DNA from: a bacterium
Lineage (GTDB): Bacteria > Patescibacteriota > Minisyncoccia > JBBINA01
Direction of reading: 5' to 3'
Assembly: GCA_037444125.1 (NCBI GenBank)
Contig: JBBINA010000001.1
Coordinates: forward strand, 13,961-77,960
Length of the DNA: 64,000 nucleotides
The number at the start of each line of letters is the position of its first letter. The stretch's first letter is position 1. Of the stretch, positions 10,878 through 41,815 are shown in pieces. A program made the position numbers and the translations under genes. The notes beneath the pieces are model-generated. The model was not told the DNA's origin. It ran no database searches and was given only the letters and a program-made list of their open reading frames with translations.

Positions 10878-11789
10878 TTGACAAATAATAAAAATTTCTT
10901 ATTATTTGATTGGCAATTAGCTAGTTCTTTTATAAGAGAGGTGGCGTCAGTGTCGAGAATTAATCTAATTAATCCGCAAGAGTACGATTTTGTCGTGTCG
11001 CGATTAAGGGATTTTTTTAGGCGAAAGAATTTCGTTGAGGTGCCAGTTCAGCATCGTTTAAGCATTTTGGCGGCCTGTGAAGATCCAAGAACTATAGCTA
11101 CTTTTAATTACGCTGGCGCTTTATGGCCATTGCCGCAAACTGGTCAGATGTGGCTTGAATATGAGTTGCTTACAAAACCTGAGGCACGTGGTTATTATTG
11201 TATAAGTACAAGTTTTCGTAACGAGCCGGATCCAATTCCCGGTAGACATGATCTTGTTTTCCCGATGTTTGAATTTGAAACGCATGGCGATATGGAGAAA
11301 TTGATTGCTTTAGAAATAGAGCTTTTGGAGTTTTTAGGATTTGGCAATAAAGGAGATTTTGTTATAAAGGAGTATCAAGAAATTGCTCAAAGATATGGAG
11401 TTGAAGAGCTTGACTCTTCCCATGAAGAGAGGTTATTGGAAGATTTTGGGGCAGTTGTTTTTATAAAGAATTTTCCCGAAATTACTTCGCCCTTTTGGAA
11501 TATGAAAAGAAACAAAAACGGTTCATCTTGTAAAGTTGATGTGGTTCTTTATGGTATCGAGACAATTGGTTCAGCCGAAAGAAGCTGTGATGTTACGGTT
11601 ATGCACGAAAGATTTCATAATATTAGCAATGGAATATACGCGGAACTTCTTTTTGCGCAGTTTACGAGAGAAAGGGTTTTGGAAGAGTTAGAAAATTTTC
11701 TCAGGTTAAAATTTATTACTCGATCTGGCGGTGGAATAGGTATAACACGTTTAATCAGAGCTCTAAAACTTCACGGCATATTAAAATAA
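10878..11789 (+). CDS. class II aminoacyl-tRNA synthetase catalytic-domain paralog without anticodon-binding domain (EpmA/PoxA-like or AsnA-like ligase)
   Basis: motif 1 FFRRKNFVEVPVQ, motif 2 SFRNEPDPIPGRHDLVFPMFEFE, motif 3 GGGIGITRLIRAL; only 303 aa; start codon uncertain (TTG 10878 or GTG about 10938). Confidence 0.7.
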   Translation: MTNNKNFLLFDWQLASSFIREVASVSRINLINPQEYDFVVSRLRDFFRRKNFVEVPVQHRLSILAACEDPRTIATFNYAGALWPLPQTGQMWLEYELLTKPEARGYYCISTSFRNEPDPIPGRHDLVFPMFEFETHGDMEKLIALEIELLEFLGFGNKGDFVIKEYQEIAQRYGVEELDSSHEERLLEDFGAVVFIKNFPEITSPFWNMKRNKNGSSCKVDVVLYGIETIGSAERSCDVTVMHERFHNISNGIYAELLFAQFTRERVLEELENFLRLKFITRSGGGIGITRLIRALKLHGILK

Positions 11790-11796
11790 TGTTGGG

Positions 11797-11825
11797 GAGG
11801 CTAGGCTATGCCTAGCCTTTTTTGT
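11797..11825 (+). terminator. rho-independent terminator (GGCTAGGC-TAT-GCCTAGCC + T6)
   Basis: perfect 8-bp stem, T-tract. Confidence 0.7.
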
Positions 11826-11903
11826 CTTCGAAAATTTTTATTTTTAGGATGGTTTGCTAAAAAAGTTTATTTTTGTTATGATTTTTAGTATTATTAATTT
11901 ACT

Positions 11904-13358
11904 ATGAAGAAAAGGCTTTTTATTTCAACGGCAATTCCTTATGTTAATGCAGCGCCGCATATTGGTTTTGCTTTGGAGATCGTGCAGACAGATGTATTAG
12001 CGCGCTATTATAGAAAAAGAAATTATGAGGTCTTTTTTTTAACAGGCACTGATGAAAATAGTTTGACAAATGTTCGTGCAGCCGAAAAAGAGAAAATAAG
12101 TGTTAAAGAACTAGTTGATCGCAATGCAAAAAAATTTTTGGAACTTAAGGAATTTCTTAATCTTTCATTTGATGATTTTATTAGGACTACCGAAAGTCGG
12201 CATATTAAAGGCGCTCAAAAACTTTGGTTGGCTTGCAAGAAAGATATTTATAAAAAGAAATATCGAGGTTTATATTGTATTGGTTGTGAAAGTTTTTATA
12301 GTGAACGCGAATTGATAGAAGGTTTATGTCCTGAACACAAAATTAAACCAGAAATCATTGAAGAAGAAAATTATTTCTTTAAATTAGCTAACTATGAAGT
12401 TCAGCTTAAGAAGATAATTGAATCAGACGAACTTAAAATTATTCCTCAAATCAGAAAAAATGAGGTTTTGAGTTTTATTAATTCCGGTTTGCAAGATTTT
12501 TGTATTTCTCGTTCTAAAACCCGCGCTAAAAACTGGGGTATTGAAGTGCCGGGCGACTCAGGGCAAGTTATATGGGTTTGGTTTGATGCCTTGAGTAATT
12601 ACATTAATGCACTTGGTTATGCTGACGACGAGACGAAATTTAATAAATGGTGGCAGGATAATTCTAAAAAGATTCATATGATTGGTAAAGGCATTGTTCG
12701 ATTTCATGCCATTTATTGGGCGGCTATGCTTTTATCAGCTAAACTTTCATTACCATCAACGATTTTTGTTCATGGTTATGTGACTCGTGAGGGTTTAAAA
12801 ATGTCAAAAACCATCGGCAATATAGTTGATCCTTTTGAATTAGCCAGAAAATTCAGTTCGGACCCGCTTCGTTATTATCTTTTGCGTGAAATTCCAGCTT
12901 ATCAGGATGGAGATTATTCAGAGAGAAGGTTCCGCGAAATATATAAATCAGAATTACAAAATGCGTTGGGCAATCTTGTTCAGAGAGTAAGTGTTTTGGC
13001 AATTAAAAATAATGTTAAGAAATTAAATAATGTCAGCGTACGTTTTTTGATGAAACAAAAAGAAGTGGCTAGCCGTATTCAAGAGTTACTTGAAGAGATA
13101 AAATTTAACGAAGCTGTTCAAGAAATATTAAGACTAGTTGAAATAGCAAATTTTTATATTGAACAAGAAAAACCATGGTCAAAAAATAAAAAAACTAATC
13201 AAGTAATTTTGAGCAATTTGCTGTTTTTAATTAACGAAATAAACGATCAATTAAGTGTCTTTTTGCCTGAGACTTATAAAAGAATTAGGGAGCGCATTTT
13301 TGTTAAAAATAAAAGAGTGATAGTTACAGTTAAAGAACCGTTGTTTAGGGCAATATAA
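11904..13358 (+). CDS. metG: methionine--tRNA ligase (short form)
   Basis: HIGFALE (HIGH-like), KMSKT, Zn-knuckle CIGCESF...CPEH. Confidence 0.93.
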   Translation: MKKRLFISTAIPYVNAAPHIGFALEIVQTDVLARYYRKRNYEVFFLTGTDENSLTNVRAAEKEKISVKELVDRNAKKFLELKEFLNLSFDDFIRTTESRHIKGAQKLWLACKKDIYKKKYRGLYCIGCESFYSERELIEGLCPEHKIKPEIIEEENYFFKLANYEVQLKKIIESDELKIIPQIRKNEVLSFINSGLQDFCISRSKTRAKNWGIEVPGDSGQVIWVWFDALSNYINALGYADDETKFNKWWQDNSKKIHMIGKGIVRFHAIYWAAMLLSAKLSLPSTIFVHGYVTREGLKMSKTIGNIVDPFELARKFSSDPLRYYLLREIPAYQDGDYSERRFREIYKSELQNALGNLVQRVSVLAIKNNVKKLNNVSVRFLMKQKEVASRIQELLEEIKFNEAVQEILRLVEIANFYIEQEKPWSKNKKTNQVILSNLLFLINEINDQLSVFLPETYKRIRERIFVKNKRVIVTVKEPLFRAI

Positions 13359-13396
13359 AAAGCCTCATAACTATAACTAATTTTATGAAGCTGCAG

Positions 13397-13751
13397 TCAC
13401 TGTTTGTTTGGTTTTTGTGCTAGCTTTAGGATAAGACATTTGATTGTTTTGGGTTTGGTACCGATTGGCCAGAAAAATTGAGCTACATCGGTATGTTTTA
13501 TTTTTGATTTATGCCAACATTTAAATGAAATAGTTACGCCAAAACTAAACTTTATTTTACCGTCGGTTAGTCTTGCTATGACAGTAATGTCTTTAACATT
13601 TTGATCTTCGTGAGAATTTGCTGCATGGCGGATAAATTTCGTTAGATTTTTTTCATTTGGATCAAATTTTTTCAACGCTATCTTCAAGGAATTGACATGC
13701 GTTTCGTGCGTCTAATGGAGAATTCGTTGGGCTTGCGTTTGTTTTTACCAT
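13397..13751 (-). CDS. hypothetical protein interrupted by a frameshift in a homopolymer run
   Basis: 96-aa ORF 13397..13687 plus upstream 29-codon ORF (MVKTNASPTNSPLDARNACQFLEDSVEKI) fuse if the A6/T6 run at 13667-13672 is one nt shorter. Confidence 0.35.
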
Positions 13752-13789
13752 ATTTATTATTTATGTATGCCTCCTTTAGAGCGGAAGTT

Positions 13790-14275
13790 CTAATTGAATT
13801 TCATCTTTAATGGGTATACCGTGATAGCCAATATGGGGAATTTGGGGCTTGAGTTTGCGCGATTCTTTTATGGCATCGGGGTATATTTGTGTTATTCTGA
13901 AGCCGCGTTTTGAAAGAATTGCAAGGCATTTAGATTATCATTAGTGGTTATTAGCCATATTTTGTCTAATTTTCTTTGACGGGCCATTTCGATGATTTTT
14001 TCCAAAACAATACTGCCAAATCCGATATTTTGGATATCACTATTGAGCGTAACTATTTCACAATGTTTATTTTTATTTGGTATGTTAGTACGGCGAGAAC
14101 CTGTTTTGTAAGAGCTTCGAATAATATTAAATTAGGAATTTCTAAAGCGTTAATTATTTTTTTGGCGCCTAACTATTAGAGACGTTTCTCAGTGTTTGGA
14201 AATAAATTTAGCTAATCATTCAGAGTCACCAGCAACTTTGTGGTGGATTAGAACATATTGCGATTTCATATTTCA
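13790..14275 (-). pseudogene. GNAT family N-acetyltransferase, heavily decayed
   Basis: minus-strand fragments ...NIGFGSIVLEKIIEMARQRKLDKIWLITTNDNLNALQFFQNA... and GFRITQIY... resemble GNAT motifs A/B but are split by stops and frameshifts. Confidence 0.4.
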
Positions 14276-14532
14276 CCCCTTATGTTATTATTATAGTGTG
14301 CGGTTATTTTTAAAAATCAAGTTTCACAAATAAAAAATAAAGGAGTTGTAAATTAAATTTAGACATTTACAATAAATTTAAATGATAAATATTGGAAAAT
14401 TTTACCAGAGATTTTTGGGGGCATTTTTTGCATTGGTATTGATATATCTGCCTTTAAAAAAATATTAATCATCAGTGCAAATTTAAATGAACACTCTGCC
14501 GAAGCGGCTGTTGTTACTCAAAGAACGGGGTA

Positions 14533-15948
14533 TTGCTTATGATATTTTTTGATGCTCGTTTAAATCAGCTTAGTTCAAGTATCTTGGGTACCAGTGCGCC
14601 TAGATATGACGGTATTATTTTAACGGAAGGCAATTTGGCTTATGAAGAGAACGGGCAGTTTAAGAGCGTCTTTGATGATAATGAATGGAATATTTTGTAT
14701 ACATTTGAAAACCAGTTTAGAATTAGGGAGCTAGTTATGTATACTTTTCCTACTAGTCGTTATGGCTTGGAGTTTGTTGAGACAAGGCCGGCAGGTATAT
14801 TAGCTCGACTTACGACTTCTGGTAAAGGAATATTGCCCTATGTTCCTGTAGCGGCTTCTTTAGCGATTGAAACTTATGGTTATTTAGCGAGACCTCTTGC
14901 TGGTAATACGCCATTAATAACCGATACTGACGGCCGAATAGCTGTTTCATTATATACAAACGGCAACAGAGAATTTTTAGTTTCTACTTTTGATAACAGC
15001 GTTAATCATCTTCACACTTTATTGTTTATTGACTGATTTTTAAACTGGTTGTTGAAAGGTGATTACTCCATACCTTCAGAGAATTATTTGACTGTTCATA
15101 TAGATGATATATTTATTCCTAACTCAAGTTATTCAGATCCTTCTAGAGATGTTATAATGACAAAAGAAGATTTTATTTATTTTGCCAATTGGGCTCGAGT
15201 GCGGAATTTTAGGCCAAGCCTTTTATTCAATGGTTATGGAGAAAACACGATAGAAGGAAAGACGCTTATTGATACGGTGATGAGTAGTGGAATAGCCTTC
15301 CTTTTTGAATGGATTAATCACACTTACGAACATATTAATTTAGATAATGCTTCGTTTGAGATAATTTATAATGAAATCTATAGAAATTTATCTTTCGCCT
15401 CACGTTACAAATTAACAGGTTTTGACCGTTTTGTTTTAGTCACGGGTGAACATTCGGGATTGAACAATCCTCAGCTTATTGCTGCGGCGCGGAGATTCCG
15501 CATTATAAATATAGGAGATGACGCCTCGGTGAATTTATCATCAAGATCTCTTTAGGGCATAATAACTGTACCGCGTTACCCAACAAATATTTTTGCGACT
15601 ACAGGCACGAGGCATGAGCTAGTAACTGCTTATAATACAATATATGGCACTAATTTAACTTATCCTGAAATACTTGACCGAGAGGCAAGGATTATTATAC
15701 GCCATATTTTACGGAGAGATCCGCGACCTCACTTTTTTCATCAAATCAATTTAGCACAAGATAGAATTATGATTGATTTATTAAACCTGGTTATTGAGAA
15801 GTACTCGTCATTAGATTCAAGACCATTAAAGCAATTGCGGATGAGGGAAATAGGTAAGTTATTTGGCCAAGTTACAATTTTACCTCCTTTAGTTGTAAAC
15901 AAATTGATTGGTATAACAAGGCATTTTGATGCTGATATAATGAAATAA
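14533..15948 (+). pseudogene. single ~470-codon reading frame interrupted by in-frame TGA (15034-15036) and TAG (15553-15555); possible polysaccharide deacetylase-like protein
   Basis: three consecutive open stretches in the same frame; 131 stop-free codons after the TAG; HIDD and HTYEH resemble CE4 motifs only weakly. Confidence 0.55.
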
Positions 15949-15974
15949 ATAAAAGCCTCCTAAGTTATATTGGT

Positions 15975-17452
15975 ATGTCAAAAACTATTTCAATTATAAC
16001 GGAGGGGACTTTTCCTTATGTAACTGGAGGGTTAGGGAGATGGTGTAGTGATCTTGTTTCAGGACTGGTTAATTTTAAATTCAATATTTATGCTTTTACA
16101 GCTACGCGTTATCACGTTTTTCAGTATCCTATAACTAACAATATTGAGGAAATTGTAACTGTTCCCTTGTGGGACGATAATCGTTTTCAGCATTTTTATT
16201 ACAGGAGAAAAATTAAAAAAAAAGACTTCCAGGGAAATTAATTCCCAAAGAAAGTCATATGAAGGAGAGTTTAATTGATCCCCTTTTTAGTCTTATTGGT
16301 CCTCCATATACAACTGAAATAGATATTGATTTTTTTAGAGATATATTAGTTAAACTTCGTGATTTTTTTGATAGCTATGATTATTTTGCGAGTTTTAGTT
16401 CAGGAGTATTATAGGAAGCAGCGCAAGAATTTCTCAATAGTGATGCCTTGATAGATGTTGTTTCTTGTAAGCCAAGCCTTTTTGATTTAAGGCAATTTTT
16501 GGTTATATTGAGCCTTTTTTTATATCCACTTTCTTTTGAGACGGAGTTTAAAACCGATATTTTTCACTCGAGCGTAGCTAGCTCTTTTGGTTTGTTAGGT
16601 GTTATCAACAAGATTATTTATGGAAAACCATTTGTTTTATCCGAACATGGTGTCTATCTTCGTGAGCAATATTATTTTATTAAGCAATCTCGAGTTTTAA
16701 CAAAATTTTTAAAAAAATTTTTACGCTTACTTATATACCGTTTTGTAATTTTGAATTACAATTTTGCTGATAAAATTATTCCGGTGTGTCTCTTTAATAA
16801 ACGTTGGGAACAATATTTGGGAGCAAAAGATGATAAATTGCAGGTTATCTATAATGGTATAAACGATAGCAGTGAGTTTGAATTTTTAAAACAAGAGTAT
16901 GTTAAAGAAAAAACAAGCTTTAATGATATTATATTAGTTGGCGCTTTTTATCCTTTTAAAGACATTGAAACAGCTATTAGGGCCGTAGCTATTGTTAAAA
17001 AACAGGTTCCTAATATTCGTCTCTATATTTTCGGACCAATAAAAGATAAAGACTATTTTTCTTATTGTTTAAGATTAATTAAAAATTTAAGTCTTAAAAA
17101 TAATGTTATTTACCGTGGAGTAGTGAAAGACCTACAAAATTATTTCAAGGTAGGAGGCGTTTTTTTGTCGACAAGCGTTTCAGAAGGCTTTCCTTACTCG
17201 ATTCTGGAAGCTATGTTGTATAAACAGGCAATTGTAAGCACATCTGCAGGTGGTATCCCCGAATTATTAGGTGACTGCGGTCTTTATGTTGAAATGAAAA
17301 ATCCAAACTCTGTCGCCAAAGCATGTCTTAAGCTATTACATAATCAAAGTCTTCGTATTGAATTAGGTTGGCGTGCCCACCAAAGGGCTGTAGAGCGGTT
17401 TTCTTTAAGTAGAATGCTTAAATCTTATGAGTATTTGTATAATTCGCTATGA
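15975..17452 (+). pseudogene. GT4 family glycosyltransferase (PelF-like) disrupted by an A9 frameshift and an in-frame TAG
   Basis: N-term GTFPYVTGGLGRW and C-term GFPYSILEAMLYKQAIVSTSAGGIPELLGD are GT4-like; frames join inside A9 run 16215-16223; in-frame TAG at 16412-16414. Confidence 0.7.
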
Positions 17453-18906
17453 GAAAGATTTTAAATTTTAACAATATAAAGTTATCCGAGAAAAAACTTA
17501 TTGCTCCATATATATTAGACACGGCAGTTAATCTTGAGTTTGCAGGTTACAATGATCAGCAGATAAAAAAGGAATTCGGGTTTTCCAATGTTTTTGAATT
17601 AAGCTATTTTATTCATCAGTATAGGCTTTGCCCTAAACCTTTTTTGGTAAAATCGAATAAATGGCAAGATAAGTTTTTAGCTAGTGATTCGATTAGGTTA
17701 AAAATATTTGAGTGGTTTTATTTTGGTCTAGCTAATTCTTTACTAGCCTTGGTTATTTTTTTTACTCTTTGGTTTACTGAATCAGGACATATTTTAAAAC
17801 CGATTGAAGGTTTAATAATTGTATTGTTGAGTCACATTTTTGCTTCTAGTTGGGCGAGAATACTGATTGTTAAGTTTTCATTTTATAACGATAGACCAAT
17901 AGCTGGTTATGGCGAGAAGACAATTAATCAGTATTATCTTAGGGGCCTATTTGGGATTATAACGGCAGGCATTATTTTGTTTTTTTTGTTTAGCAGAGAT
18001 AATATTTTTACCCTCGTTTTTATAGACATATCTTTATTTTGGCTTAATATAGGATATTTTGTTGCGTTTCGTCAGTTACCAATTTATTTAATAACCTTAG
18101 GTAGTATCTTGTTTCTTGGCAGTATCTATGATCCTTTTGTGCTATTTGGTGTTTTTAATGGCGTTATGATTTTTTATATTTGGCTCAAATATTTAATTAA
18201 CTTGGCGCGTGAACCATTTTCAGTTTATTCCAATTCATTTAGTAATAATTCATTGAATTTATTTTCTTTATTTTTTTTTGCTATTAATTATGGTTTCTTG
18301 CTGTTGATTGATGTCATTGTTTTGTTTTTCTATGGCCAGTTTGATACATATGATATTTTTATTCATCAGTATCTTGCCCATAAGTATTTTGGTATATTTC
18401 CTTTACTTTTGTCGGCGGGTCTTATTGAGGCATTTGGTGTTTATTTTTTTAGCAAGATTATTCGTTTGGAGCGAGTCATAAAAGAAAGCACAGTTATGTT
18501 CAATGAAATAATAAAAAACTATATCCAGACTATTAGCATTTTTTCAATGCTGCACTTTGGTGTAACGATATTAGTATCCTTCATTATTCCATTAAGCAAT
18601 GGTTATTTTAAAGAAGTTTATATTAGTTCAACTATTGGTGTTATGTTTTTGCTTTTGAGTTTGTTTAATTTGAACATTCTTCATTATTTGGGATGGCGTA
18701 AAGATTTGTGGTTTGGTATAGTTAGTTTATTTGTGGGATATGTTTATGGCAGTTTAATGTTTTATAATGTTGCCGCATACGCTGTTGTTTATGGTTTTTT
18801 GATGGCCGGGATTGTCTTTTTTGTCACAACAATGGCTTTGTTGTTGAAAAAAGCTTTACGGTATAGCTACTTAGTTTATTTAACTTCTGTATTGCCAAAG
18901 TTATAA
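17449..18906 (+). CDS. polytopic membrane protein (about 12 TM; candidate polysaccharide exporter/polymerase, PelG-like by architecture only)
   Basis: 485 aa, ~70-aa soluble N-term then multiple TM helices; ATGA overlap with upstream GT4, TAATG overlap with downstream gene. Confidence 0.55.
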   Translation: MRKILNFNNIKLSEKKLIAPYILDTAVNLEFAGYNDQQIKKEFGFSNVFELSYFIHQYRLCPKPFLVKSNKWQDKFLASDSIRLKIFEWFYFGLANSLLALVIFFTLWFTESGHILKPIEGLIIVLLSHIFASSWARILIVKFSFYNDRPIAGYGEKTINQYYLRGLFGIITAGIILFFLFSRDNIFTLVFIDISLFWLNIGYFVAFRQLPIYLITLGSILFLGSIYDPFVLFGVFNGVMIFYIWLKYLINLAREPFSVYSNSFSNNSLNLFSLFFFAINYGFLLLIDVIVLFFYGQFDTYDIFIHQYLAHKYFGIFPLLLSAGLIEAFGVYFFSKIIRLERVIKESTVMFNEIIKNYIQTISIFSMLHFGVTILVSFIIPLSNGYFKEVYISSTIGVMFLLLSLFNLNILHYLGWRKDLWFGIVSLFVGYVYGSLMFYNVAAYAVVYGFLMAGIVFFVTTMALLLKKALRYSYLVYLTSVLPKL

Positions 18907-20111
18907 TGAGGGCTTTTTTATTTATATTAATGATAGTAATGATATTGGTTGGTGTAGCGGTTGGTGATGCTTTTTTAAGTGCAGCGGCTATTTTTGAAAG
19001 GCCGATTCTTCGAGGGCCAAGCAACGGCAAATTAATAAACGAAACTCCTATTATATTTACCTGGTCTAAAATTAAAAACGAGCCTAGATACCAAATTGAT
19101 ATTTCTCTTTCAGCCGATTTTAATAAGATAATAATTACAGAAACAGTTATTGGAAATACTTATACGCTTAGGTTTTTAGATAATGATGGTATATATTATT
19201 GGCGAGTTAAATTAGCAGGGTTAATGTTTTTTTTAGCTCCATGGTCAGAAGTTTATAAATTTACTTATAAAAAAAAATTAAAAGATCAGGTTTTAACTGA
19301 ATTAAGCCAGTCTGAATTTAAACAGCCAATTTTTCGGTTTAGAAACTGGGTATCTTATTATGGCAGCAATAAAATCGAGGAATTAAAAAAGTTCGAGCTT
19401 GTTGTTATTGATGCAGATAAAGATATAGGAAATTATACTGACGAGGAGTTGCGTCAACTCAGAGATTCTGGGTCATTAGTAGTGAGTTATTTAAATATTG
19501 GTTCATGTGAAACCTTTCGTACTTATTGGTATTTGTGTCAAAAGTTTAAACTTAAGCCATATAAAGGGTATTCAGATGAATATTGGATGGATGTGACTAA
19601 TATTGACTATCAAAATTTTATAGTCAATATTTTAGCTAAAAACCTTGTTTCGCAGGGCATAAACGGTTTGTATTTGGATAACATTGATATATATCAGGAA
19701 AGTTTTAACGGAAGGACAATAGCAGAAATCAAGGCAGGATTAGCTAATATTATTGTTGCCTTAAGGAGAACATATCCTGATTTGCTTCTTATTGCTCAAA
19801 ACGGCGTCTACGCTTCTTATGATGATATTTTATATTTTAGTTCAACAATTACTGATTCAAAACCACTTTATACTTTTATTGATGGTGAGTCTCACGAGGA
19901 AGTTTTTACTAATACTAGCGAAACTCAGTCTATAGTAAGTATGCTACAAGATCTTAAGAGCAAAGGTTTGTTTATTTTAAACCTTGAGTATTTGGAAGAC
20001 CTTCAAGATATTGATAGAATAAGAGATATTTATAACCGCTCTATCCAAAACGGGTTTTTGCCATATATTTCAGATGTAAAGCTTGACAAAATTTACCTTT
20101 GGAATTTTTAA
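18906..20111 (+). CDS. secreted GH114-like glycoside hydrolase (endo-alpha-1,4-polygalactosaminidase / PelA-hydrolase / TM1410 family) with N-terminal Ig/FN3-like domain
   Basis: signal/TM N-term; motifs VVSYLNIGSCETFRTYWY and GLYLDNIDIY typical of the GH114 TIM barrel. Confidence 0.65.
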   Translation: MRAFLFILMIVMILVGVAVGDAFLSAAAIFERPILRGPSNGKLINETPIIFTWSKIKNEPRYQIDISLSADFNKIIITETVIGNTYTLRFLDNDGIYYWRVKLAGLMFFLAPWSEVYKFTYKKKLKDQVLTELSQSEFKQPIFRFRNWVSYYGSNKIEELKKFELVVIDADKDIGNYTDEELRQLRDSGSLVVSYLNIGSCETFRTYWYLCQKFKLKPYKGYSDEYWMDVTNIDYQNFIVNILAKNLVSQGINGLYLDNIDIYQESFNGRTIAEIKAGLANIIVALRRTYPDLLLIAQNGVYASYDDILYFSSTITDSKPLYTFIDGESHEEVFTNTSETQSIVSMLQDLKSKGLFILNLEYLEDLQDIDRIRDIYNRSIQNGFLPYISDVKLDKIYLWNF

Positions 20112-20138
20112 GCTACCTTTTGCAATATTTAAATAATA

Positions 20139-20172
20139 AAAAGGAGGTAGATCGTCGCCTCCTTATTTTAAT
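20139..20172 (+). terminator. rho-independent terminator (AAGGAGG-N10-CCTCCTT + ATTTTAA)
   Basis: 7-bp stem 28 nt after the GH114 stop. Confidence 0.55.
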
Positions 20173-20262
20173 GTCATTAACTGTTTTTATTGAATTTATT
20201 AAATAGTAATAACTGCAAATAGTTGAAAACAACAGCAAGTAAGGAAACAACCACTAGTGCCA

Positions 20263-20517
20263 TTAGAGCATGAGTTTGAGCATTATTAAGAGGAGTAGTA
20301 TTGGAATAATTAATAGTTTAGCTAGTATCAAGCCGCGAGTGACACCAAATCGCTTCATAAATATTTTGGCTATTGGATTGCTTTTGTACTCAATATTACC
20401 AGTTTTCCTAAAGAATAAAATGGTGCTGTGAAAATCAAGAACATTCAATATAAGATAATAAATGATTAAAAGCAGTTGGGGCGAAATTCCCCTGGCGTCG
20501 CCAACTAGTATAGACAA
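20263..20517 (-). CDS. hypothetical small membrane protein
   Basis: 84 aa, two hydrophobic helices; isolated on minus strand in an intergenic gap. Confidence 0.3.
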   Translation of the reverse strand: MSILVGDARGISPQLLLIIYYLILNVLDFHSTILFFRKTGNIEYKSNPIAKIFMKRFGVTRGLILAKLLIIPILLLLIMLKLML

Positions 20518-20724
20518 GGTCGTGAAGACTATTATGAAACTATTATGGTAGCGTCGACCATAATAATAATAATAACGACTTTCTTATATTTGATCACCCC
20601 TTTTTATTTTCTAGAGACAGCGCTTCTGATTGATATTATAAATAAAGTATTTGTCAATAACCAAGTAACTTGCAATAATTTTTAGAAGCTATAAAATAAC
20701 AGATAAAATAAAATATCTTTTTAT

Positions 20725-22026
20725 ATGAAGTTTATCTGCGATTTTGAGATTCATTCGCGGTATTCCCGTGCCTGTAGTAAAAATATTAGTCTTGAGGAAA
20801 TAGCTCGTTGGGCTCAGATTAAAGGCATTAAACTTGTTGGCACAGGTGATTTTACGCACCCTTTTTGGTTCAAAGAAATAAAAGAAAAATTGGAGGAAAA
20901 AGAGCGCGGTTTTTTTAGCTTAAAGGAGCAATATATAAAGCTAGCTAATAAAAATAAAGATATTCCCATCGCGATTAAAAAAGACGCTGTGCGGTTTTTA
21001 TTAAGCGCGGAAGTTAATTGTATTTATCATAAGAATCAAAAGTTGCGCAAGGTTCATCATATTATTCTTGCGCCTGATCTTGCAACAGTAGAGAAAATAA
21101 ACGAGTCGTTATCTTGGTATGGCAAATTGGCTAGCGATGGACGACCAATAATTACCCTTAGCTCAAAAGAGCTTTTGAAGAAGCTTTTGGATATAAATGT
21201 CCAGATCTTACTTATCCCGGCGCATTGTTGGACGCCTTGGTTTGGTATTTTTGGTTCGAAGTCCGGTTATGATTCGCTTGAAGAATGCTTTGACGAGTTG
21301 ACTAAATATGTTTATGCGATTGAAACAGGTCTTTCTTCTGACCCTGAGATGAATTGGCGCATTCCTTGGCTTAAGGATGTAGCTATTTTATCAAGCTCTG
21401 ATGCTCATTCTTGCCCAAAGATAGGCCGTGAGGCAACTTGTTTTGATACTGAATTTAGTTATAATGGATTATACGAAGCTATTAAAACAAATAGTTCCTC
21501 AAAAATCGCCTATACGATTGAATTTTTTCCCGAAGAAGGTAAGTATCATTATGATGGACATCGTCATTGCAATATTTCATTGTCTCCCCTAGAAAGTGAA
21601 AAATATGGTGGTATTTGTCCTCATTGCAGTTTACCGTTTACTTTGGGCGTGCTGAATCGTGTGTATAAATTAGGTAAACAGGGGATAATTGAAAAGCCAA
21701 TGAATAGACCGCCATTTTATAAAATAGTTCCGTTAGAAGAAGTACTCTCTGAGGTGTTTGGTTTGCCAGTCGGCTCGAAGACTTTACGGATTAAATATTT
21801 TGAAACTGTGGGGGCGTTGGGTGAAGAATTTAAGATATTACTAGAACTTGATTTTCATGAGATTCAGCAACTAAATGAAAGATTGGCTGAAGCTGTAACT
21901 AAAATAAGAAAGGGTGAAATCGTTATTAAACCAGGCTATGATGGCGTTTTTGGAGTAGTGAGAGTGTTTCCTGAAAGTCAATATGTTGCTGAAGAGGAAA
22001 ATATTTTTCAGGAGCCACTTCTTTAA
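20725..22026 (+). CDS. endonuclease Q-like PHP-domain nuclease with C-terminal zinc ribbon (TIGR00375-like)
   Basis: N-term DFEIHSRYSRACSK...LVGTGDFTHPFW, central HHIIL...PAHCWTPW...SSSDAHS and CPHCSLPF zinc ribbon match the archaeal EndoQ pattern. Confidence 0.7.
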   Translation: MKFICDFEIHSRYSRACSKNISLEEIARWAQIKGIKLVGTGDFTHPFWFKEIKEKLEEKERGFFSLKEQYIKLANKNKDIPIAIKKDAVRFLLSAEVNCIYHKNQKLRKVHHIILAPDLATVEKINESLSWYGKLASDGRPIITLSSKELLKKLLDINVQILLIPAHCWTPWFGIFGSKSGYDSLEECFDELTKYVYAIETGLSSDPEMNWRIPWLKDVAILSSSDAHSCPKIGREATCFDTEFSYNGLYEAIKTNSSSKIAYTIEFFPEEGKYHYDGHRHCNISLSPLESEKYGGICPHCSLPFTLGVLNRVYKLGKQGIIEKPMNRPPFYKIVPLEEVLSEVFGLPVGSKTLRIKYFETVGALGEEFKILLELDFHEIQQLNERLAEAVTKIRKGEIVIKPGYDGVFGVVRVFPESQYVAEEENIFQEPLL

Positions 22027-22038
22027 TGTTTTGAGAAA

Positions 22039-22410
22039 ATGGATGCCAAAAATTTTCAAGTTTCTCAATTTCTTTTAGATGAAATTAGACATAGTTTGAT
22101 CGATTTTTTTACTGATTGGTTTTTGGCTTATCCTAAAAAAATCCTAAAAGGACTTATTTTGAATTTCAAAGAGTTTGATAAATCTTTAGGCTTACAAGCA
22201 ATGGCTAAAAATTGGCTTAATCCTTTGTATCAAGATTACAATATTTGGGGTTATATTATTGGCGTTACAATTAGGACAGTTTATATTTTTATTGGCGGGG
22301 CTAGTTTCTTTGCTATTTATGTTATTGTTGGCTTTTTAATTTTAGCTTTATGGTACGCTTTCCCAATTCTAATATTTATTTTATTTTTTAGAAATCTTTT
22401 TGGGATCTAA
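22039..22410 (+). CDS. hypothetical small membrane protein
   Basis: 123 aa, soluble N-term plus 2 C-terminal TM; 12 nt after the EndoQ-like gene and 2 nt before the Clp-like gene. Confidence 0.45.
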   Translation: MDAKNFQVSQFLLDEIRHSLIDFFTDWFLAYPKKILKGLILNFKEFDKSLGLQAMAKNWLNPLYQDYNIWGYIIGVTIRTVYIFIGGASFFAIYVIVGFLILALWYAFPILIFILFFRNLFGI

Positions 22411-22412
22411 TT

Positions 22413-25049
22413 ATGGATAAAAAGCAATTAGAGAATCTTTATTTTGAAGATTTTTTTACAACACTTTCTTCGGCAGAAAGAAGCACTTTACAGATGTTGG
22501 CGCGGTTTTTTTGGTATTGTGTTTTTGGACTTGGATTTATTTTCTTTATTATCGGATTAAATCAAAGTTTATTTTCGCCCAGACTCCTTGTGTCCCTATT
22601 TTTTGAACGCTCATTTTACTACGCCCTATTTTGGTTAGGCCTTTTTTTGTTGTTGTATTTTTTTCATCACTTCTATAAGAGTCGAAAACCTCGTCTTAAT
22701 TTACGAGAAATTGATCTTGTTTCTGAACTTAAATATAGGAAAATAAATAGCGCTTACTTTTTGGAGCCAGAGACAAAAAATTTTATTATTAATGTATTTG
22801 AGAGGAGCAAAAAAGAACTAATCAAAATTGATTTTAGTTTATTTGAGGCTCTTTTAGAAACTAAGTTTTTTGAGAATGTGCTTGATCATTTGGAAACTAG
22901 TTTAGAAAAAATTAAAAACCGTTATCAAACAGCGCGTAACGAGATTAAAAGATATAAAAATAGCAACGAGCTCTTAATTGATTTTGACGATTTAATAAGA
23001 GAGGCGGTTAATAATGCTTTGGTTTTTGATGACGAGGCTGTTGATTTGACTCATTTAATGGTTGCAATTTTAAAGCGGGAGAATAAATTCTTTAGCGATA
23101 TTTTTTTAGGCGAGAATATTGATTTTGACGATGTTAAGCACGTTTTGTTTTATAAAAAGCTACGGCATAAATATTTATATCTGATTCATAAGTCAAAACC
23201 GCGCCGTATTGAGCATAAGTATATGGATTTGGCTATGACAGCAAAGCCAACTTATTATTTAGATCAATTCTCTCATGACCTAACTGACTTGGCGCGTTAT
23301 GGCATTATTGGCTTTGTGATTGGCCATAAAGACGAAACCGAAGAGTTGATTAATATTTTGAATCTCGATGTTAAAAATAATGCAATGTTGATTGGACCTA
23401 CGGGTATTGGTAAAACAACTATTATTGAAAATTTAGCTTGGCGCGTGTTTCGCGGTACAGTGCCGCCAAAACTGCGTGATAAACGTGTAGTTGCTTTGGA
23501 TACTGGTTCTATTTTAAGTGGCTTAAAGACGCCCGGTGAGTTGCAAGAAAGATTAAGCAAAATCCGTGATGAAATTTTAAATGCCAAAAATTTGATTTTA
23601 GTGATTCCCGATCTTCACGATTTAATGAAGGCTACTTCTATGCAGGCAATTTCTTTGTCTTCTTTCTTTAGCTCTGTTTTTCAGATGACAGATTTCCCAT
23701 TATTGGCGACTACAGATGAGAAGAATTATCATCTTTATATTGAGCCGGACACTGAAATAATTAATGCTTTTAATCAGATTAAAATTAGGGAAATTTCTCC
23801 TGAGGAAGCTTTGTATCTTCTTATGATTGAATCTTTTAAGATTGAAGCTAAGAAAAATGTAGTGATAAGTTATTATGCTTTAAAGGAGACAGTTGAGATT
23901 GCTGTGAAATATATTCATAATCAACCCTTGCCTGGTAAAGCGACCTTATTGCTTTATGATGGTGTGGAAAATGTTTTAGCGCAAGGTAAAAGATTAGTGA
24001 CCAAGGAAAACCTGCGTGAAACTTTTACTAAAAGGACAGGTATACCTATTACCCAGACAAAGGGAGAGGAGAAAAGAATACTGTTGGAACTTGAGCAAAT
24101 TTTACATCAACGTATGGTTGATCAAGAACAGGCCGTTAAGGTTATTGCTGAAGCCTTACGAGAAGCGCGAACCGGCCTTGGTCATGAAAAGGGTCCTATT
24201 GGGACTTTTCTTTTTGTTGGTCCTACAGGCGTTGGAAAAACAGAAATGGCCAAAACTTTAGCTAGTTATTATTTTAAAGGCGAAGATAAAATGCTTCGTT
24301 TTGATATGTCGGAATATCAAACAAATGACGCTATTTATCGATTGATTGGTTATCGTGGTCAAGGCGGGTTTTTAACAGAGGCAGTTAAACAAAACCCATT
24401 TTCATTGGTGCTGTTGGATGAATTTGAAAAAGCCAATCGGGACGTTTTGAATCTTTTTTTGCAAGTTTTTGATGACGGTCGTCTTACTGATGAGCTTGGT
24501 AATGTGGTTGATTTTACTAACACTATTATTATTTGCACTTCTAATGCCCATTCGGTTTTGATTAAGGAGGAATTAGAAAAAGGACGAAATATTCAAGAGT
24601 TAAGAGATATTATGAAACAACGGCTTACTGATTATTTTAAACCAGAACTAATTAATCGATTTGATGAGATTGTGGTTTTTAAGCCATTGAGTTCTGACGA
24701 TATAAGAAAAATTGCCTTACTACAGATTGGGAGACTTTTTTGGCAATTGGAGAATGATAAGGGTTTTAAATTTAAAATAAGCGAACGAGCGCTTAATAGG
24801 ATAGCTCGAGTTGGTTTTGATCCGGTTTATGGGGCTCGTCCGTTAAGACAGGCTATTCGTAAGAAAATAAAAAATTTAATTTCTCTTTTAATTTTACAAG
24901 ATAGGCTTGAGCGAGGTAAACATTATTTGCTTGATTATGAGGAAAATAAAGACTTTTTCGTCATTGACGAAAATCTTAGAACTACTTTAAAATTGGAGGC
25001 GCAGGAGAGAATAAAATCTGCTAAAGAGGAAATAAAGGGTGGCAAATAA
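22413..25049 (+). CDS. ClpC/ClpB-family double AAA+ ATPase with N-terminal transmembrane segments
   Basis: 2-3 N-terminal TM helices, Clp_N-like repeat, D1 Walker A LIGPTGIGKTT, D2 FLFVGPTGVGKTE, LLDEFEKA, sensor/ClpB_D2-small. Confidence 0.85.
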   Translation: MDKKQLENLYFEDFFTTLSSAERSTLQMLARFFWYCVFGLGFIFFIIGLNQSLFSPRLLVSLFFERSFYYALFWLGLFLLLYFFHHFYKSRKPRLNLREIDLVSELKYRKINSAYFLEPETKNFIINVFERSKKELIKIDFSLFEALLETKFFENVLDHLETSLEKIKNRYQTARNEIKRYKNSNELLIDFDDLIREAVNNALVFDDEAVDLTHLMVAILKRENKFFSDIFLGENIDFDDVKHVLFYKKLRHKYLYLIHKSKPRRIEHKYMDLAMTAKPTYYLDQFSHDLTDLARYGIIGFVIGHKDETEELINILNLDVKNNAMLIGPTGIGKTTIIENLAWRVFRGTVPPKLRDKRVVALDTGSILSGLKTPGELQERLSKIRDEILNAKNLILVIPDLHDLMKATSMQAISLSSFFSSVFQMTDFPLLATTDEKNYHLYIEPDTEIINAFNQIKIREISPEEALYLLMIESFKIEAKKNVVISYYALKETVEIAVKYIHNQPLPGKATLLLYDGVENVLAQGKRLVTKENLRETFTKRTGIPITQTKGEEKRILLELEQILHQRMVDQEQAVKVIAEALREARTGLGHEKGPIGTFLFVGPTGVGKTEMAKTLASYYFKGEDKMLRFDMSEYQTNDAIYRLIGYRGQGGFLTEAVKQNPFSLVLLDEFEKANRDVLNLFLQVFDDGRLTDELGNVVDFTNTIIICTSNAHSVLIKEELEKGRNIQELRDIMKQRLTDYFKPELINRFDEIVVFKPLSSDDIRKIALLQIGRLFWQLENDKGFKFKISERALNRIARVGFDPVYGARPLRQAIRKKIKNLISLLILQDRLERGKHYLLDYEENKDFFVIDENLRTTLKLEAQERIKSAKEEIKGGK

Positions 25050-36040: not shown

Positions 36041-37047
36041 ATGCCTATACGAATTGGTCTGAATGGTTTTGGGCGGACAGCGCGGACTTTTTTTAGAATT
36101 GTAAGCGAAAGTCCATCGGTTGAGCTTGAGGTTGTAGCTATTAATGTAAAAAGTCAAAGCCCAGAGCAAGCAGCTTATTTACTTAAATATGATTCAGTAT
36201 ATGGACGATACTCCAAAGATGTATTGTATAACGATAAAACCATCAAAATAGAAGGTTGCGAAGTTCCGATTCTACAGGTTTCAGACCCGGCAGAAGTTCC
36301 TTGGTTTAAGTTTGATGTAGATATAGTTGTCGAAGCAACTGGGAAGTTTAGATCATTTGATAAAGCAGCTAAACATCTTGCCAGCGGTGGAGTTAAAAAA
36401 GTGCTTATTACTGCGCCGGCAAAAGGCGATATTCCCACTATTGTCTTTGGGGTTAATGACAATATTTATAACAAAAAGAGGTATCATATAATTTCAGCTG
36501 TTTCTTGTACTACTAATTGTTTGGCACCTGTGGCTTTATTTTACATAAAGAGTTTGGAATAAAAAGGGGTTTAATGACTACGGTTCATGCTTATACTGGT
36601 AGTCAAAATTTAGTGGATAGCAGTAACGAAGATATGGTTGAAGGCCGGGCGGCGGCTGTCAATATTATTCCGACAACAACAGGAGCGGCTAGCGTCATAG
36701 GTTTAGTAATCCCGGAACTGAAGGATAAACTTGATGGTATGGCTTTTCGCGTGCCCGTTCCTACAGGATCAGTGATTGACCTAGTAGTGGAATTAGAGAA
36801 GAAGGTTCTTGTTGAAGAGGTTAATAATATTTTTAAGCAATACGCTTTTGGTCAATTTAAGAAAACACTTGGTATTTCTGAGTGGCCATTAGTTTCCTCA
36901 GATTGTATTGGCGATAGCAGATCTGCCATTGTTGATTTAAGCTCAACTAAGATTATTGATGGAGACTTTTTAAAAGTAGTAGCTTTTTATGATAATGAGT
37001 GGGGTTATTCTGCGAGACTTGTTGATATTGCTAAAATGCTTTTATAA
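36041..37047 (+). CDS. gapA: glyceraldehyde-3-phosphate dehydrogenase, interrupted by a 1-nt frameshift near 36535-36545
   Basis: GLNGFGR, SCTTNCLAP then frame switch, then GLMTTVHAYT; two overlapping ORFs 36041..36562 and 36517..37047; strong SD AAAGGAGGT. Confidence 0.85.
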
Positions 37048-38421: not shown

Positions 38422-39259
38422 GTGAATACATATTTTAAAATAAGTTTAAAAATTTTTTTCATTGTTGGCGGTTTATTTTTTGGTTTTGTAGGTGAGTTTA
38501 GTACAGGACAATTGGTTCATTTGTCATCAGACTTTGATTTAGAAGTTGTTTCTTTCATCACTTCTCAAAATACTCGTCGAGTTGTTCGAAATCAGGACAA
38601 AAAGATATACGGCGCAATTGTGCTGCATCGTTTATTAGCTAAACCAATTATTACCGAAATCTTGAACGAAGTAGCGCAAATTTTTAAATTGCAGAAATGA
38701 ACACCTAATCAGGTTATACTCTTTTCTCCGAATCATTTTTTAACTGGAAAGTATCCTATAATTGGCACAAGCTTTGATTGGAAGACAAAATTTGGCATTG
38801 TTCAAAGCGACAAAATTGAGACTGCTGTTTTTGGTTTAACTATTAAGCGTGAGTATCTCGATTTGAAAAATAAGCCTATAGAAGAGTTTTCTGCCGGTGA
38901 TTTAGTAAAGATAAAATTGATCGTTAATTCCCGTAATAATGAAAAATTAATTTACATTATTATCGAGGATTTCTTACCATCTAGTTTTGCTCCTCAAAAT
39001 CCGCGATTAGAGAACGGGAGTGAACGAGAACGTCGGTGGTGGGGGTACGAAATGGATATAAGAGATGAACGTGTGGTTTTTTGTGGACAATCTTTGGAAT
39101 GACATACATATATTTGACTATATAGCGCGCGTCAACTTTAGAGGCGAGTTTGAGGTGTCAGCTCCGCAGGTTCAAATGATGTATGTGCCTACAAATTATG
39201 GCTTTGGTAGTGCTAAAAAAAATGATTATAAATTAAATTTTTTCAATTGGGTTTTTTGA
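38422..39259 (+). pseudogene. C-terminal remnant of an alpha-2-macroglobulin family protein (A2M receptor-binding/MG10-like region)
   Basis: IIEDFLPSSFAPQNPRLEN matches the A2M C-terminal LPAGxExEN motif; in-frame TGA at 38698-38700, frameshift in T6 run 39077-39082; the N-terminal >1000 aa expected for A2M are absent. Confidence 0.5.
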
Positions 39260-39368
39260 GGTTGGGGCTTCAAAAATTATTTCATAACAGTCATATTGAC
39301 AGAAGTAATTTTATACATTAAAATATAGATAGAGCTCACTAAAACAAATTTATAAAGGAGTGATAGTG

Positions 39369-40583: not shown

Positions 40584-40608
40584 GTTAAATATTTAGTTTG
40601 TAGCTTGA

Positions 40609-40640
40609 CGGAAGGAGTAGTTGTCCTTCCGTTTTTTGTT
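40609..40640 (+). terminator. rho-independent terminator (CGGAAGGA-N8-TCCTTCCG + T6)
   Basis: seen directly. Confidence 0.7.
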
Positions 40641-40647
40641 TACCCTC

Positions 40648-40675
40648 TTGACATTTTTATATGGTATGCTAGAAT
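40648..40675 (+). promoter_or_regulatory. sigma70-type promoter TTGACA-16-TAGAAT with TG extended -10
   Basis: seen directly; drives a ~150-nt leader ending in a hairpin/T-tract before CDS 40841. Confidence 0.55.
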
Positions 40676-40840
40676 AAAAACGTGAAAGTCCGAACCAACT
40701 CGATTATATTATAAAGATTTAGGTTTAAGGTGGTATTAGCAGGACGAGCGTTCGAACTTTTTTATTTTGTTCTCTGAAATTGGAATCTCGGGTGGCAATC
40801 CAAACAAACACAAATCAATCTTAAGGAGGATTGATAACCC

Positions 40841-41155
40841 ATGGCTCGAAAAACTGTTCAGCCCGGAGCTGTTCGTCAGACAATGACTTTGGAGGAGCCG
40901 ATTACTGTGGTTCAGTTGTCAGAAATCGACTCCGTAGGTTACTATGTTAACACGCAAACTGGTCTTGGTTTGCGGGTTGACAAGAATCTTCTTCAAGCCC
41001 TGAACATCGGCGGCCATGCTTTCGGACGTTTTGAGGCTAGCCCCGAAAATCAGGGATTGCTGCAGTTTGCCAAAATCAGTGGGGATCCGTTTATCCCCAG
41101 CGACGAAGCGGCTTTGCGCGCCGCTCGCGCTAGTCTGCCGGTCGCCTTCCAGTAG
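40841..41155 (+). CDS. hypothetical 104-aa protein in a compositionally foreign (~52% GC) gene
   Basis: strong SD AAGGAGG-10-ATG, GC-rich codons, followed by two terminators (GCGGGCT-t-AGCCCGC; CCCCAGCTTG-gtaca-CAAGCTGGGG+T5 at 41213-41245). Confidence 0.6.
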   Translation: MARKTVQPGAVRQTMTLEEPITVVQLSEIDSVGYYVNTQTGLGLRVDKNLLQALNIGGHAFGRFEASPENQGLLQFAKISGDPFIPSDEAALRAARASLPVAFQ

Positions 41156-41323
41156 TAAAATAGCGGGCTTAGCCCGCATCGTTTAGTCAAAAGCGCCACC
41201 CGAGGTTTCTTGCCCCAGCTTGGTACACAAGCTGGGGTTTTTCTTTATTCTAGAAAACTTGCGTCCTTAATATATTAGGTTTAGAATATTAGAGTTAGAA
41301 ATAAATTATAATTAATTTTACTT

Positions 41324-41686: not shown

Positions 41687-41735
41687 ATAATAAGGCTAAT
41701 TAAAATTCTTTTGCCTTTTGCTTAACATATGTCTA

Positions 41736-41764
41736 TTGACATATTTATCTTTATGTGTTAATAT
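41736..41764 (+). promoter_or_regulatory. sigma70-type promoter TTGACA-17-TAATAT
   Basis: seen directly, ~50 nt upstream of ATG 41816. Confidence 0.5.
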
Positions 41765-41815
41765 ATATAAGTTAAGGTTGTTCATTAAAAAACAAGATTT
41801 AAAGAGGTGAAAGCA

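Follow-up and report, generated by a model that had tools for sequence, protein, structure and literature searches.

Probable decay of an Agd3-like deacetylase gene and a PelF-type glycosyltransferase gene at the front of a predicted surface-polysaccharide operon in Patescibacteria

The first two genes of a predicted surface-polysaccharide operon in a 64,000-nucleotide stretch of Patescibacteria DNA (hereafter the window) are very probably recently inactivated pseudogenes in a host with the standard genetic code. The stops at 15034, 15553 and 16412 are real in-frame stops, and the decay of the two genes, which encode an Agd3-like deacetylase and a PelF-type glycosyltransferase, is ordinary gene decay, neither recoding nor a sequencing artefact. 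Both genes show full-length homology to intact genes and carry DNA-level lesions that a genetic-code explanation does not cover. The host is Parcubacteria-like, with a tiny genome and the standard code. The region consists of the front two genes of a four-gene synthase-type exopolysaccharide operon, predicted to be of the bacterial Pel/GAG-like kind, in the order Agd3-like deacetylase, PelF, multi-spanning membrane protein and GH114 glycoside hydrolase.

The deacetylase gene is laid out as follows.
14382..14468, + strand: probable original start and signal-peptide or transmembrane remnant (MINIGKFYQRFLGAFFALVLIYL...), now in another frame and closed by a stop (from the ORF list; inferred)
14447..14530, + strand: probable remnant of an N-terminal domain strand motif (SAFKKILIISANLNEHSAEAAVVTQRTG), in the third frame (local alignment to homologues)
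14533..15033, + strand: fragment A, a CBM87-type carbohydrate-binding domain (PF25116 CBM87_Agd3, 3.9e-8)
15034..15036, + strand: in-frame TGA, aligned to Gly in 11 of 12 homologues
15037..15552, + strand: fragment B, first half of the CE18 catalytic domain (PF25115 Agd3_CE, 2.7e-7)
15097-15114, + strand: CM1, HIDDIF, in fragment B (mapped to Agd3 6NWZ)
15316-15333, + strand: CM2, NHTYEH, in fragment B (mapped to Agd3 6NWZ)
15553..15555, + strand: in-frame TAG in a variable loop between CM2 and CM3 (alignments and motif mapping)
15556..15948, + strand: fragment C, second half of the CE18 domain (PF25115, 2e-7)
15571-15588, + strand: CM3, PRYPTN, in fragment C (mapped to Agd3)
15736-15753, + strand: CM4, FHQINL, in fragment C (mapped to Agd3)

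A preliminary description of this DNA, all of whose coordinates were correct, had treated 14533-15948 as one reading frame broken only by the TGA and the TAG. This frame, which ends at TAA 15946-15948, comprises 472 codons. At the stop rate expected from local base composition (0.072 per codon) about 34 stops should occur, and two are observed; the other five frames of the same DNA carry 27-52 stops each. The stop-free run after TAG 15553 (130 codons, P ~6e-5) is beyond chance, as had been claimed.

The three fragments are identifiable separately, fragment A scoring 33.8 bits with PF25116 and fragments B and C scoring 30.3 and 30.8 bits with PF25115, all above the 27.6 cut-off. A deacetylase-family profile matched Agd3 6NWZ at E 1.8e-59, with all four catalytic motifs present. 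The CE18 signatures CM1 (DD), CM2 (HxxxH), CM3 (Arg) and CM4 (His) are thus all found, with TAG 15553 between the first pair and the second. The single ORF with an N-terminal export signal expected of such an enzyme is gone, two in-frame stops interrupting it. The window copy keeps 44 of the 47 residues invariant across 12 homologues, the same rate as intact members, which points to recent inactivation; the same retention is equally expected of a still-functional deacetylase gene. An active site in two pieces and the lack of a signal peptide suggest that no functional deacetylase would be made. With the stops and frameshifts, an active site divided at TAG 15553 and a PelF gene broken twice, neither gene should yield an active product.

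Likely damage at the 5' end of the deacetylase gene was seen in addition to the lesions of the preliminary description. The span 14382-15948 amounts to 522 codons, and intact orthologues have 514 and 557 residues. A tblastn search upstream of the main frame gave no in-frame match to the N-terminal 63 orthologue residues. The 14447-14530 remnant aligns locally to the N-terminal motif K-L-L-v-s-A-d-g-t-E of five homologues with a score of 36. In one run the null was 21.6+-3.6 with a maximum of 35, and no shuffle reached 36; in a second run the null was 24.3+-4.4 and 25 of 1000 shuffles reached the score (p ~0.02). As this remnant lies in the third frame, two extra frameshifts, at ~14440-14460 and ~14525-14535, are weakly indicated.

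The glycosyltransferase gene starts at ATG 15975 and ends at 17452.
15975..16223, + strand: PelF N-terminal fragment (DUF3492) up to the A9 run (PF11997, 4.3e-18)
16215..16223, + strand: A9 homopolymer, the site of the frame change (sequence and alignment to the orthologous GT4 protein of the L004 cassette)
16412..16414, + strand: in-frame TAG, aligned to Trp of the closest orthologue (tblastn, L004 GT4)
16415..17452, + strand: PelF C-terminal part, the rest of DUF3492 plus the catalytic GT1/GT4 domain (NF038011, PF13692, PF00534)

The N-terminal fragment is 37% identical to residues 5-91 of the orthologous PelF of L004. The C-terminal fragment alone scores 115.3 bits with the NCBIfam PelF model NF038011 (cut-off 100), and the intact L004 orthologue scores 142.8. 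No intact PelF frame is left: the A9 frameshift and the in-frame TAG at 16412-16414 reported in the preliminary description are both present. At A9 the frame of 15975 gives way to that of 15977; one nucleotide lost, or two gained, relative to the ancestral frame would produce this shift. The tract may be variable in length, or the indel may have arisen in sequencing or assembly. Homopolymer tracts in surface-glycan glycosyltransferase genes are classic phase-variation switches, and a frameshift lying exactly at such a tract is what would be seen if the A9 run were a contingency on/off switch and the off state had been sequenced. However, TAG 16412 remains in the restored frame, so an "on" state is impossible; the partner deacetylase carries two stops, and the orthologues have neither poly-Lys nor poly-A at this place. 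A switch is therefore most improbable.

The fragments might also be translated separately and assemble into active enzymes as functional split genes. Possible starts (TTG or ATG ORFs) lie near fragments at 14533, 15049, 15769, 16259 and 16448, and the TGA falls roughly at the CBM87/CE18 junction. The TAG, in contrast, interrupts the CE18 barrel itself, after CM2 and before CM3, and translation could restart after it only at 15769, with the loss of CM3 and CM4. Orthologues carry an N-terminal hydrophobic signal, whereas no main-frame fragment starts with a signal peptide; as the enzyme must act outside the cell, this argues against split genes. No intact relative shows such a split, and we consider functional split genes extremely unlikely.

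Intact counterparts were found for both genes. The whole deacetylase frame is 51-52% identical (E 3e-143) to a 557-aa protein (P0001), which a genome scan showed to be the deacetylase of the L004 cassette, and 39% identical to a second deacetylase (P0002, 514 aa). The glycosyltransferase is collinear with the L004 GT4 protein (490 aa; 38% identity). The Parcubacteria MAG L004 and a second genome, L002, each carry all four genes of the cassette intact. No closer relative with the cassette was found, the best protein match among 5.8 billion clusters being 52% identical. With the TGA codon masked, the DNA surrounding it had no match in a metagenome scan, and all window proteins tested were singletons at 90% identity.

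Comparison of orthologous loci, which the preliminary description had suggested as a check, gave homologues with sense codons at 15034 (Gly) and 16412 (Trp), so that ancestral residues can be inferred at two of the three stops. TGA 15034 fits a single G-to-T change from GGA (Gly) and TAG 16412 a single G-to-A change from TGG (Trp), both codons being deduced from distant homologues. The segments downstream of the stops, on whose conservation the preliminary reading had been made to depend, belong to frames with full-length collinear homology to intact proteins.

Sister contigs L084-L088 are collinear with the window on both flanks and lack the cassette. Their flanking proteins are mostly 72-78% identical in amino-acid sequence to those of the window (61-78% overall; ~75%). 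The cassette sits at a variable site between metG and a conserved 433-aa gene. Its absence from the closest relatives at this site indicates that the operon is accessory in the clade and can be lost, and loss fits ordinary reductive evolution. A search for direct and inverted repeats flanking the cassette found only short chance matches, and gain and loss are therefore not distinguishable: one gain in the window lineage and one loss in the sister ancestor are equally parsimonious.

The preliminary description had argued that TGA, TAG and TAA all end ordinary genes here, dnaK ending in TGA, and that whole-genome recoding is unsupported. The argument is correct. Of 44 intact ORFs in the window, 27 end in TAA, 10 in TGA and 7 in TAG; dnaK (613 aa) ends in TGA and the sister genome dnaK has 614 aa. 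Stops flanked by long open frames occur only in wrecks or between adjacent genes. The stops could nevertheless be read through locally, by a suppressor tRNA, by selenocysteine or pyrrolysine insertion, by TGA decoded as Gly (code 25) or, at the A9 run, by transcriptional slippage, with full-length enzymes being made. Code 25 is used by other Patescibacteria, the Gracilibacteria and Absconditabacteria, and in some AT-rich symbionts slippage on poly-A tracts can restore a shifted frame. In the window genes the frame and all catalytic motifs are preserved on either side of each stop, and the TGA falls exactly at a conserved Gly. Against readthrough, TGA and TAG end 17 of the 44 intact genes, including dnaK at its orthologous length, and, evident wrecks aside, no other conserved gene in the 64 kb has an in-frame stop. 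The TGA aligns to Gly rather than Cys and hence is not Sec-like. To yield full-length enzymes, several independent rescue mechanisms would have to act at once on two kinds of stop codon, a frameshift and a damaged 5' end. An Rfam scan of the 64-kb window at the gathering threshold returned tRNA only, the sole tRNA being tRNA-Gln(CTG). Readthrough is thus exceedingly improbable.

Under another history, a code-25 donor (Gracilibacteria or Absconditabacteria) would have passed the cassette horizontally to a standard-code recipient, where it was "dead on arrival" and would now mark, in fossil form, a transfer between two genetic codes. However, the ~1,850 codons of the cassette contain just one in-frame TGA, the nearest intact cassettes belong to Parcubacteria with the standard code, and a single G-to-T change suffices to give the TGA. 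We regard such a donor as extremely improbable.

A further explanation is that the stops and the frameshift are consensus artefacts and the genes are intact in the organism. Frameshifts in the window do lie at homopolymers, as is typical of some platforms (A9 in PelF, T4 in the GAPDH gene, T5/A6 in a Mem_trans gene), and a frameshift in a core gene such as that of GAPDH is suspicious. However, homopolymer errors fail to account for substitutions, as the preliminary description had pointed out, and three of the lesions are of this type. Moreover, the NCBI contig (89.6 kb) and a Logan k-mer assembly (78 kb) are base-identical across the locus: over window positions 11449-24906 (13,458 bp) the Logan contig, assembled from SRR11582170, shows 100% identity. 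The fragmentary gene products were recorded from both assemblies, and the GAPDH frameshift is present in both. Elsewhere in the window only the last ~200 codons of an alpha-2-macroglobulin gene survive, and a GNAT gene has a frameshift plus several N-terminal in-frame stops, both beyond base-call error. Consensus artefacts are highly unlikely.

The GNAT pseudogene lies directly upstream of the operon, and with three further broken genes in the window it extends the list of lesions given in the preliminary description.
13779..14270, - strand: GNAT acetyltransferase pseudogene, divergent from the operon (tblastn with the intact L088 GNAT)

With the intact 132-aa GNAT of the sister contig L088 as query, the tblastn match to the window fell into two HSPs that lie in different frames, at 57% and 73% identity (E 2e-35). 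In the window copy the frame shifts near 13910-13925 and in-frame stops interrupt the N-terminal part; its reconstructed C-terminal half matches PF00583 at 2.4e-9. Outside the deacetylase and PelF genes, the 64 kb thus hold four broken genes: those of GNAT and GAPDH, the alpha-2-macroglobulin remnant and a split Mem_trans gene. Coding density is ~74% on a tally of intact ORFs 100 aa or longer, from which a few intact ORFs (e.g. the PBP gene) are missing.

Of the three explanations offered in the preliminary description, recent pseudogenisation was borne out by intact full-length homologues, several independent kinds of lesion, absence of the cassette from the closest relatives and pseudogenes nearby. 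Programmed readthrough was not upheld: the stops are of two different kinds and accompany frameshifts, a recoding signal is lacking, and these codons are not in general use as sense. Base-call error is unlikely for the substitution stops, on which the two assemblies agree.

The two downstream genes have the following features.
17449..18906, + strand: multi-spanning membrane protein, intact 485-aa ORF (29% identity to the syntenic 502-aa L004 protein)
18906..20111, + strand: GH114-family glycoside hydrolase (Ega3-like), intact 401-aa ORF (PF03537, 1.4e-15; 50% identity to the L004 orthologue)

Searches of Pfam and NCBIfam gave no match for the membrane protein even at E<=10, and hence none to PelG. 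The GH114 protein has an N-terminal signal or transmembrane segment. A terminator-like hairpin at 20141-20164, 3' of the GH114 gene, is a plausible terminator; otherwise the promoter and terminator scan stayed at chance level. The cassette contains none of the canonical Pel partners (PelG or the PelA/PelD/PelE type). The intact membrane-protein and GH114 ORFs count against pseudogenisation of the operon; that they are still intact is attributed to the recency of the decay.

The course of decay may be reconstructed as follows. Nonsense substitutions struck the deacetylase gene twice, once by changing GGA (Gly) to TGA, and probably two 5' frameshifts were added, severing the signal peptide. TAG 15553 leaves CM1 and CM2 (metal binding and base) in one fragment and CM3 and CM4 (Arg and acid) in the next. 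PelF suffered a 1-nt slip in its poly-A tract and a change of TGG (Trp) to TAG. The lesions run in the G/C to A/T direction, as expected at 34% GC. The operon should then no longer make or modify its polymer, unless a suppressor tRNA or a second intact copy is encoded outside the window. By a rough estimate, neutral divergence since constraint was lost may be 1-3%; random substitutions create stops in these frames at a rate of 4-5.5%.

The region should thus be annotated as two pseudogenes, not as five or six short hypothetical proteins and not as a recoding event. It offers a clean, datable view of an accessory surface-polysaccharide operon being shed in Patescibacteria, in which damage reached the synthase and the modifying enzyme first, leaving the hydrolase and the transporter-like protein apparently intact. 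The locus, with the intact copies of L004 and L002, places the predicted Agd3/PelF/GH114 (GAG/Pel-like) operon in Patescibacteria, which has a modest bearing on episymbiont host attachment.

Bacterial agd3 operons with a glycosyltransferase, a multi-TM protein and GH114 have been described (PMC7229062), and the window cassette has the gene set given in the description of those operons by Bamford et al. 2020 (Nat Commun 11:2450, PMC7229062): a CBM87 plus CE18 deacetylase, a cytoplasmic glycosyltransferase, a membrane protein and GH114 (ega3-like). Unlike the operons of that description, the window cassette has its deacetylase and glycosyltransferase inactivated by stops and frameshifts. Hosts named there include Actinobacteria, Deinococcus-Thermus and Proteobacteria such as Burkholderia, Moritella and Stigmatella (PMC7229062), and the window cassette lies in a Patescibacteria-type genome, outside these groups. 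No product is known to have been demonstrated for any bacterial operon of this type. As in the Pel system (pelDEADAFG, pelA-G), the window GT4 protein matches the PelF equivalog model and has a DUF3492 N-terminus, and Pel and GAG are described as sharing a predicted partially de-N-acetylated alpha-1,4-GalNAc-rich polymer (PMC7229062, PMC13254593). Unlike Pel, the window lacks PelA, PelB, PelC, PelD and PelE, and its membrane protein lacks a PelG match. The deacetylase is CE18/Agd3-like rather than PelA or PelA_DA, and GH114 stands in place of the PelA hydrolase domain. In its decay, the locus resembles pseudogenes of genome-reducing bacteria (PMC11188291), with nonsense mutations and homopolymer frameshifts in dispensable genes and several wrecks per 64 kb; in Parcubacteria MAGs pseudogene fractions are reported to be 5-10% (PMC11188291). 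Here too the affected locus is accessory and missing from relatives, and nothing essential differs. The locus is a well-resolved individual case of a known kind of decay and leaves current understanding unchanged.

It is very probable that the four-gene exopolysaccharide cassette is a dispensable operon whose two front genes, encoding an Agd3-like deacetylase and a PelF-type glycosyltransferase (GT4), were recently inactivated by mutation. The deacetylase frame from 14533 extends for 472 codons to TAA 15946-15948 interrupted only by TGA 15034-15036 and TAG 15553-15555, whereas about 34 stops (one per 14 codons) are expected from local base composition and each of the remaining five frames of the same DNA contains 27-52. 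The 130 open codons 3' of TAG 15553 have P ~6e-5. These values bear out the preliminary description of a single frame of ~470 codons with a stop-free run beyond chance. Of the three pieces delimited by the stops, A matches CBM87_Agd3 and B and C match the Agd3 CE18 deacetylase domain, each above the Pfam cut-off, and a profile of the window sequence plus 12 homologues matched the Aspergillus Agd3 crystal structure 6NWZ at E 1.8e-59. All four CE18 catalytic motifs, as defined in PMC7229062, were found.

CE18 catalytic motifs of the window deacetylase (motif mapping)
15097-15114, + strand, CM1 (DD), HIDDIF
15316-15333, + strand, CM2 (HxxxH), NHTYEH
15571-15588, + strand, CM3 (Arg), PRYPTN
15736-15753, + strand, CM4 (His), FHQINL

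TAG 15553 falls within a variable loop and leaves the metal and base motifs on one fragment and the Arg and acid motifs on the next; that the pieces are functional split genes is unlikely. Gly occupies the position aligned with TGA 15034 in all but one of 12 homologues, which fits a GGA to TGA change. Genetic code 25, in which TGA encodes Gly, occurs in other Patescibacteria, the group in which MetRS homologues place this organism. The match is most likely a coincidence produced by that GGA to TGA change, although worth recalling if more such cases appear in the genome. Of the 47 positions that do not vary among the other 12 sequences, the window copy retains 44, and intact members do likewise in a leave-one-out test; inactivation was thus recent. 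Given that 4-5.5% of random substitutions create stops in the deacetylase and PelF frames, one or two nonsense mutations per ~1.4 kb suggest ~1-3% neutral divergence, a rough value with wide error.

The first ~63 residues of the orthologues (signal peptide plus first strand of the N-terminal domain) were not found in frame upstream of 14533 by tblastn. ATG 14382 opens a signal-like ORF, and a third frame holds SAFKKILIISANLNEHSAEA, which aligns weakly (p ~0.02) with the family N-terminal motif in five homologues. As the 522 codons of 14382-15948 are in line with orthologue lengths, two further frameshifts are probable, and the export signal would have been lost.

The second gene, with DUF3492 and GT4 domains, starts at ATG 15975, shifts at the A9 run 16215-16223 to the frame of 15977 and ends at 17452; a fragment alone exceeds the NCBIfam PelF equivalog cut-off. 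Either loss of one nucleotide (A10 to A9) or gain of two would account for the frame change, which is followed by TAG 16412-16414, so the gene carries both lesions first described. That TAG aligns with Trp in the closest orthologue (tblastn), fitting a TGG to TAG change. Phase variation at the A9 run is unlikely.

Sequencing error, an explanation raised at the outset, is also unlikely, because the independent Logan assembly of SRR11582170 is identical base for base across 13,458 bp spanning the locus; only the A9 indel may reflect error or tract variation. Fragment proteins are on record from the NCBI and Logan assemblies alike. Programmed readthrough, likewise suggested earlier, or a code change is unlikely, since separate solutions would be needed for the TGA, the two TAGs, the frameshift and the damaged 5' end. 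Intact ORFs (n=44) end in TAA (27), TGA (10) or TAG (7), and dnaK stops at TGA at orthologous length; whole-genome recoding was rightly discounted. A window scan for stops with at least 80 open codons on either side gave only wrecked genes and ordinary gene junctions. The window encodes a single tRNA, tRNA-Gln(CTG); an Rfam scan of the window at gathering thresholds detected no other RNA family.

The reconstructed deacetylase retrieved 110 homologues, the best being P0001 at 52% identity (557 aa) and P0002 at 39% (514 aa), both from loci with the same four genes, every one intact.

Intact cassettes (deacetylase, PelF-type GT4, membrane protein, GH114)
L004, contig of a Parcubacteria-group MAG: 557, 490, 502, 360 aa
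L002, contig from SRR27730035: 514, 483, 510, 339 aa

In tblastn, the proteins of these cassettes pass uninterrupted over the window stops and frameshift. The L002 cassette adjoins sortase and LTD-domain genes. The closest contigs, L084-L087 and L088 (MetRS ~75% identical to that of the window), show the same gene order as the window over dnaK to metG and then from a 433-aa gene (TIGR00375/MJ0043_C) through clpB, with 61-78% protein identity, but have only one or two small genes in the intervening interval. In this interval (window 13359-20724) each of the three related lineages compared has different small genes, and only the window has the cassette. From its absence in the sisters, the cassette is accessory and its spot variable; it may have been gained in the window lineage or lost in the sisters. 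Flanking repeats and compositional contrast were sought at the cassette and none were found. A 96-aa ORF at 13397-13687 (- strand), between metG and a GNAT remnant, has no Pfam/NCBIfam match, and the sister contigs lack an equivalent. The run accessions of L002 and the cassette-free L084-L088 form one consecutive block (SRR27730020-40), a data set that may hold closer relatives allowing a dN/dS test.

Other broken genes in the window
13779-14270, - strand, GNAT acetyltransferase pseudogene directly upstream of the deacetylase gene; frameshift and N-terminal stops; intact 132-aa orthologue in L088 (4633-5031) in the equivalent position immediately following metG
36041-37047, + strand, GAPDH gene in two ORFs, Gp_dh_N (173 aa) and Gp_dh_C (176 aa), after loss of one T from the T-run 36538-36541 (...CLAPVALF/LHKEFGI...)
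38422-39260, + strand, bacterial alpha-2-macroglobulin gene remnant, last ~200 codons with only the C-terminal bMG10 region (PF17973, 1.4e-17); in-frame TGA 38698 and frameshift near 39065-39100
42833-43749, - strand, Mem_trans (auxin-efflux-carrier family) gene split into 220-aa and 85-aa ORFs overlapping in ATGA 43087-43090; frame change near a T5/A6 stretch

The GAPDH frameshift, also present in the Logan assembly, is either real decay of a core glycolytic gene or a reason for a read check. Four small same-strand ORFs (104, 120, 140 and 164 aa) lie within 2.5 kb at 40584-43086 (+ strand); a family search gave no matches, and they could encode small proteins specific to the lineage or be fragments of one more decayed gene. 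About 6 of ~58 genes in the window are broken, in agreement with the pseudogene fractions of 5-10% already reported for Parcubacteria MAGs (PMC11188291).

Intact orthologues, the retained invariant positions and the agreement of two assemblies favor recent pseudogenisation of the locus front, as first proposed. The inactivating mutations would be G/C to A/T substitutions plus homopolymer slips. With PelF interrupted twice, the deacetylase motifs split by TAG 15553 and the export signal gone, we infer that polymer synthesis and modification were lost. The third and fourth genes, a 485-aa multi-spanning membrane protein without family assignment and a 401-aa GH114 hydrolase, are intact ORFs followed by a terminator-like hairpin, presumably intact because little time has elapsed. 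The decay is an ordinary though well-documented case. According to Bamford et al. (PMC7229062), bacterial agd3 operons contain a glycosyltransferase, a multi-TM protein and a GH114 protein, the same gene set as the window cassette, and are predicted to make a Pel/GAG-like, partially de-N-acetylated GalNAc polymer.
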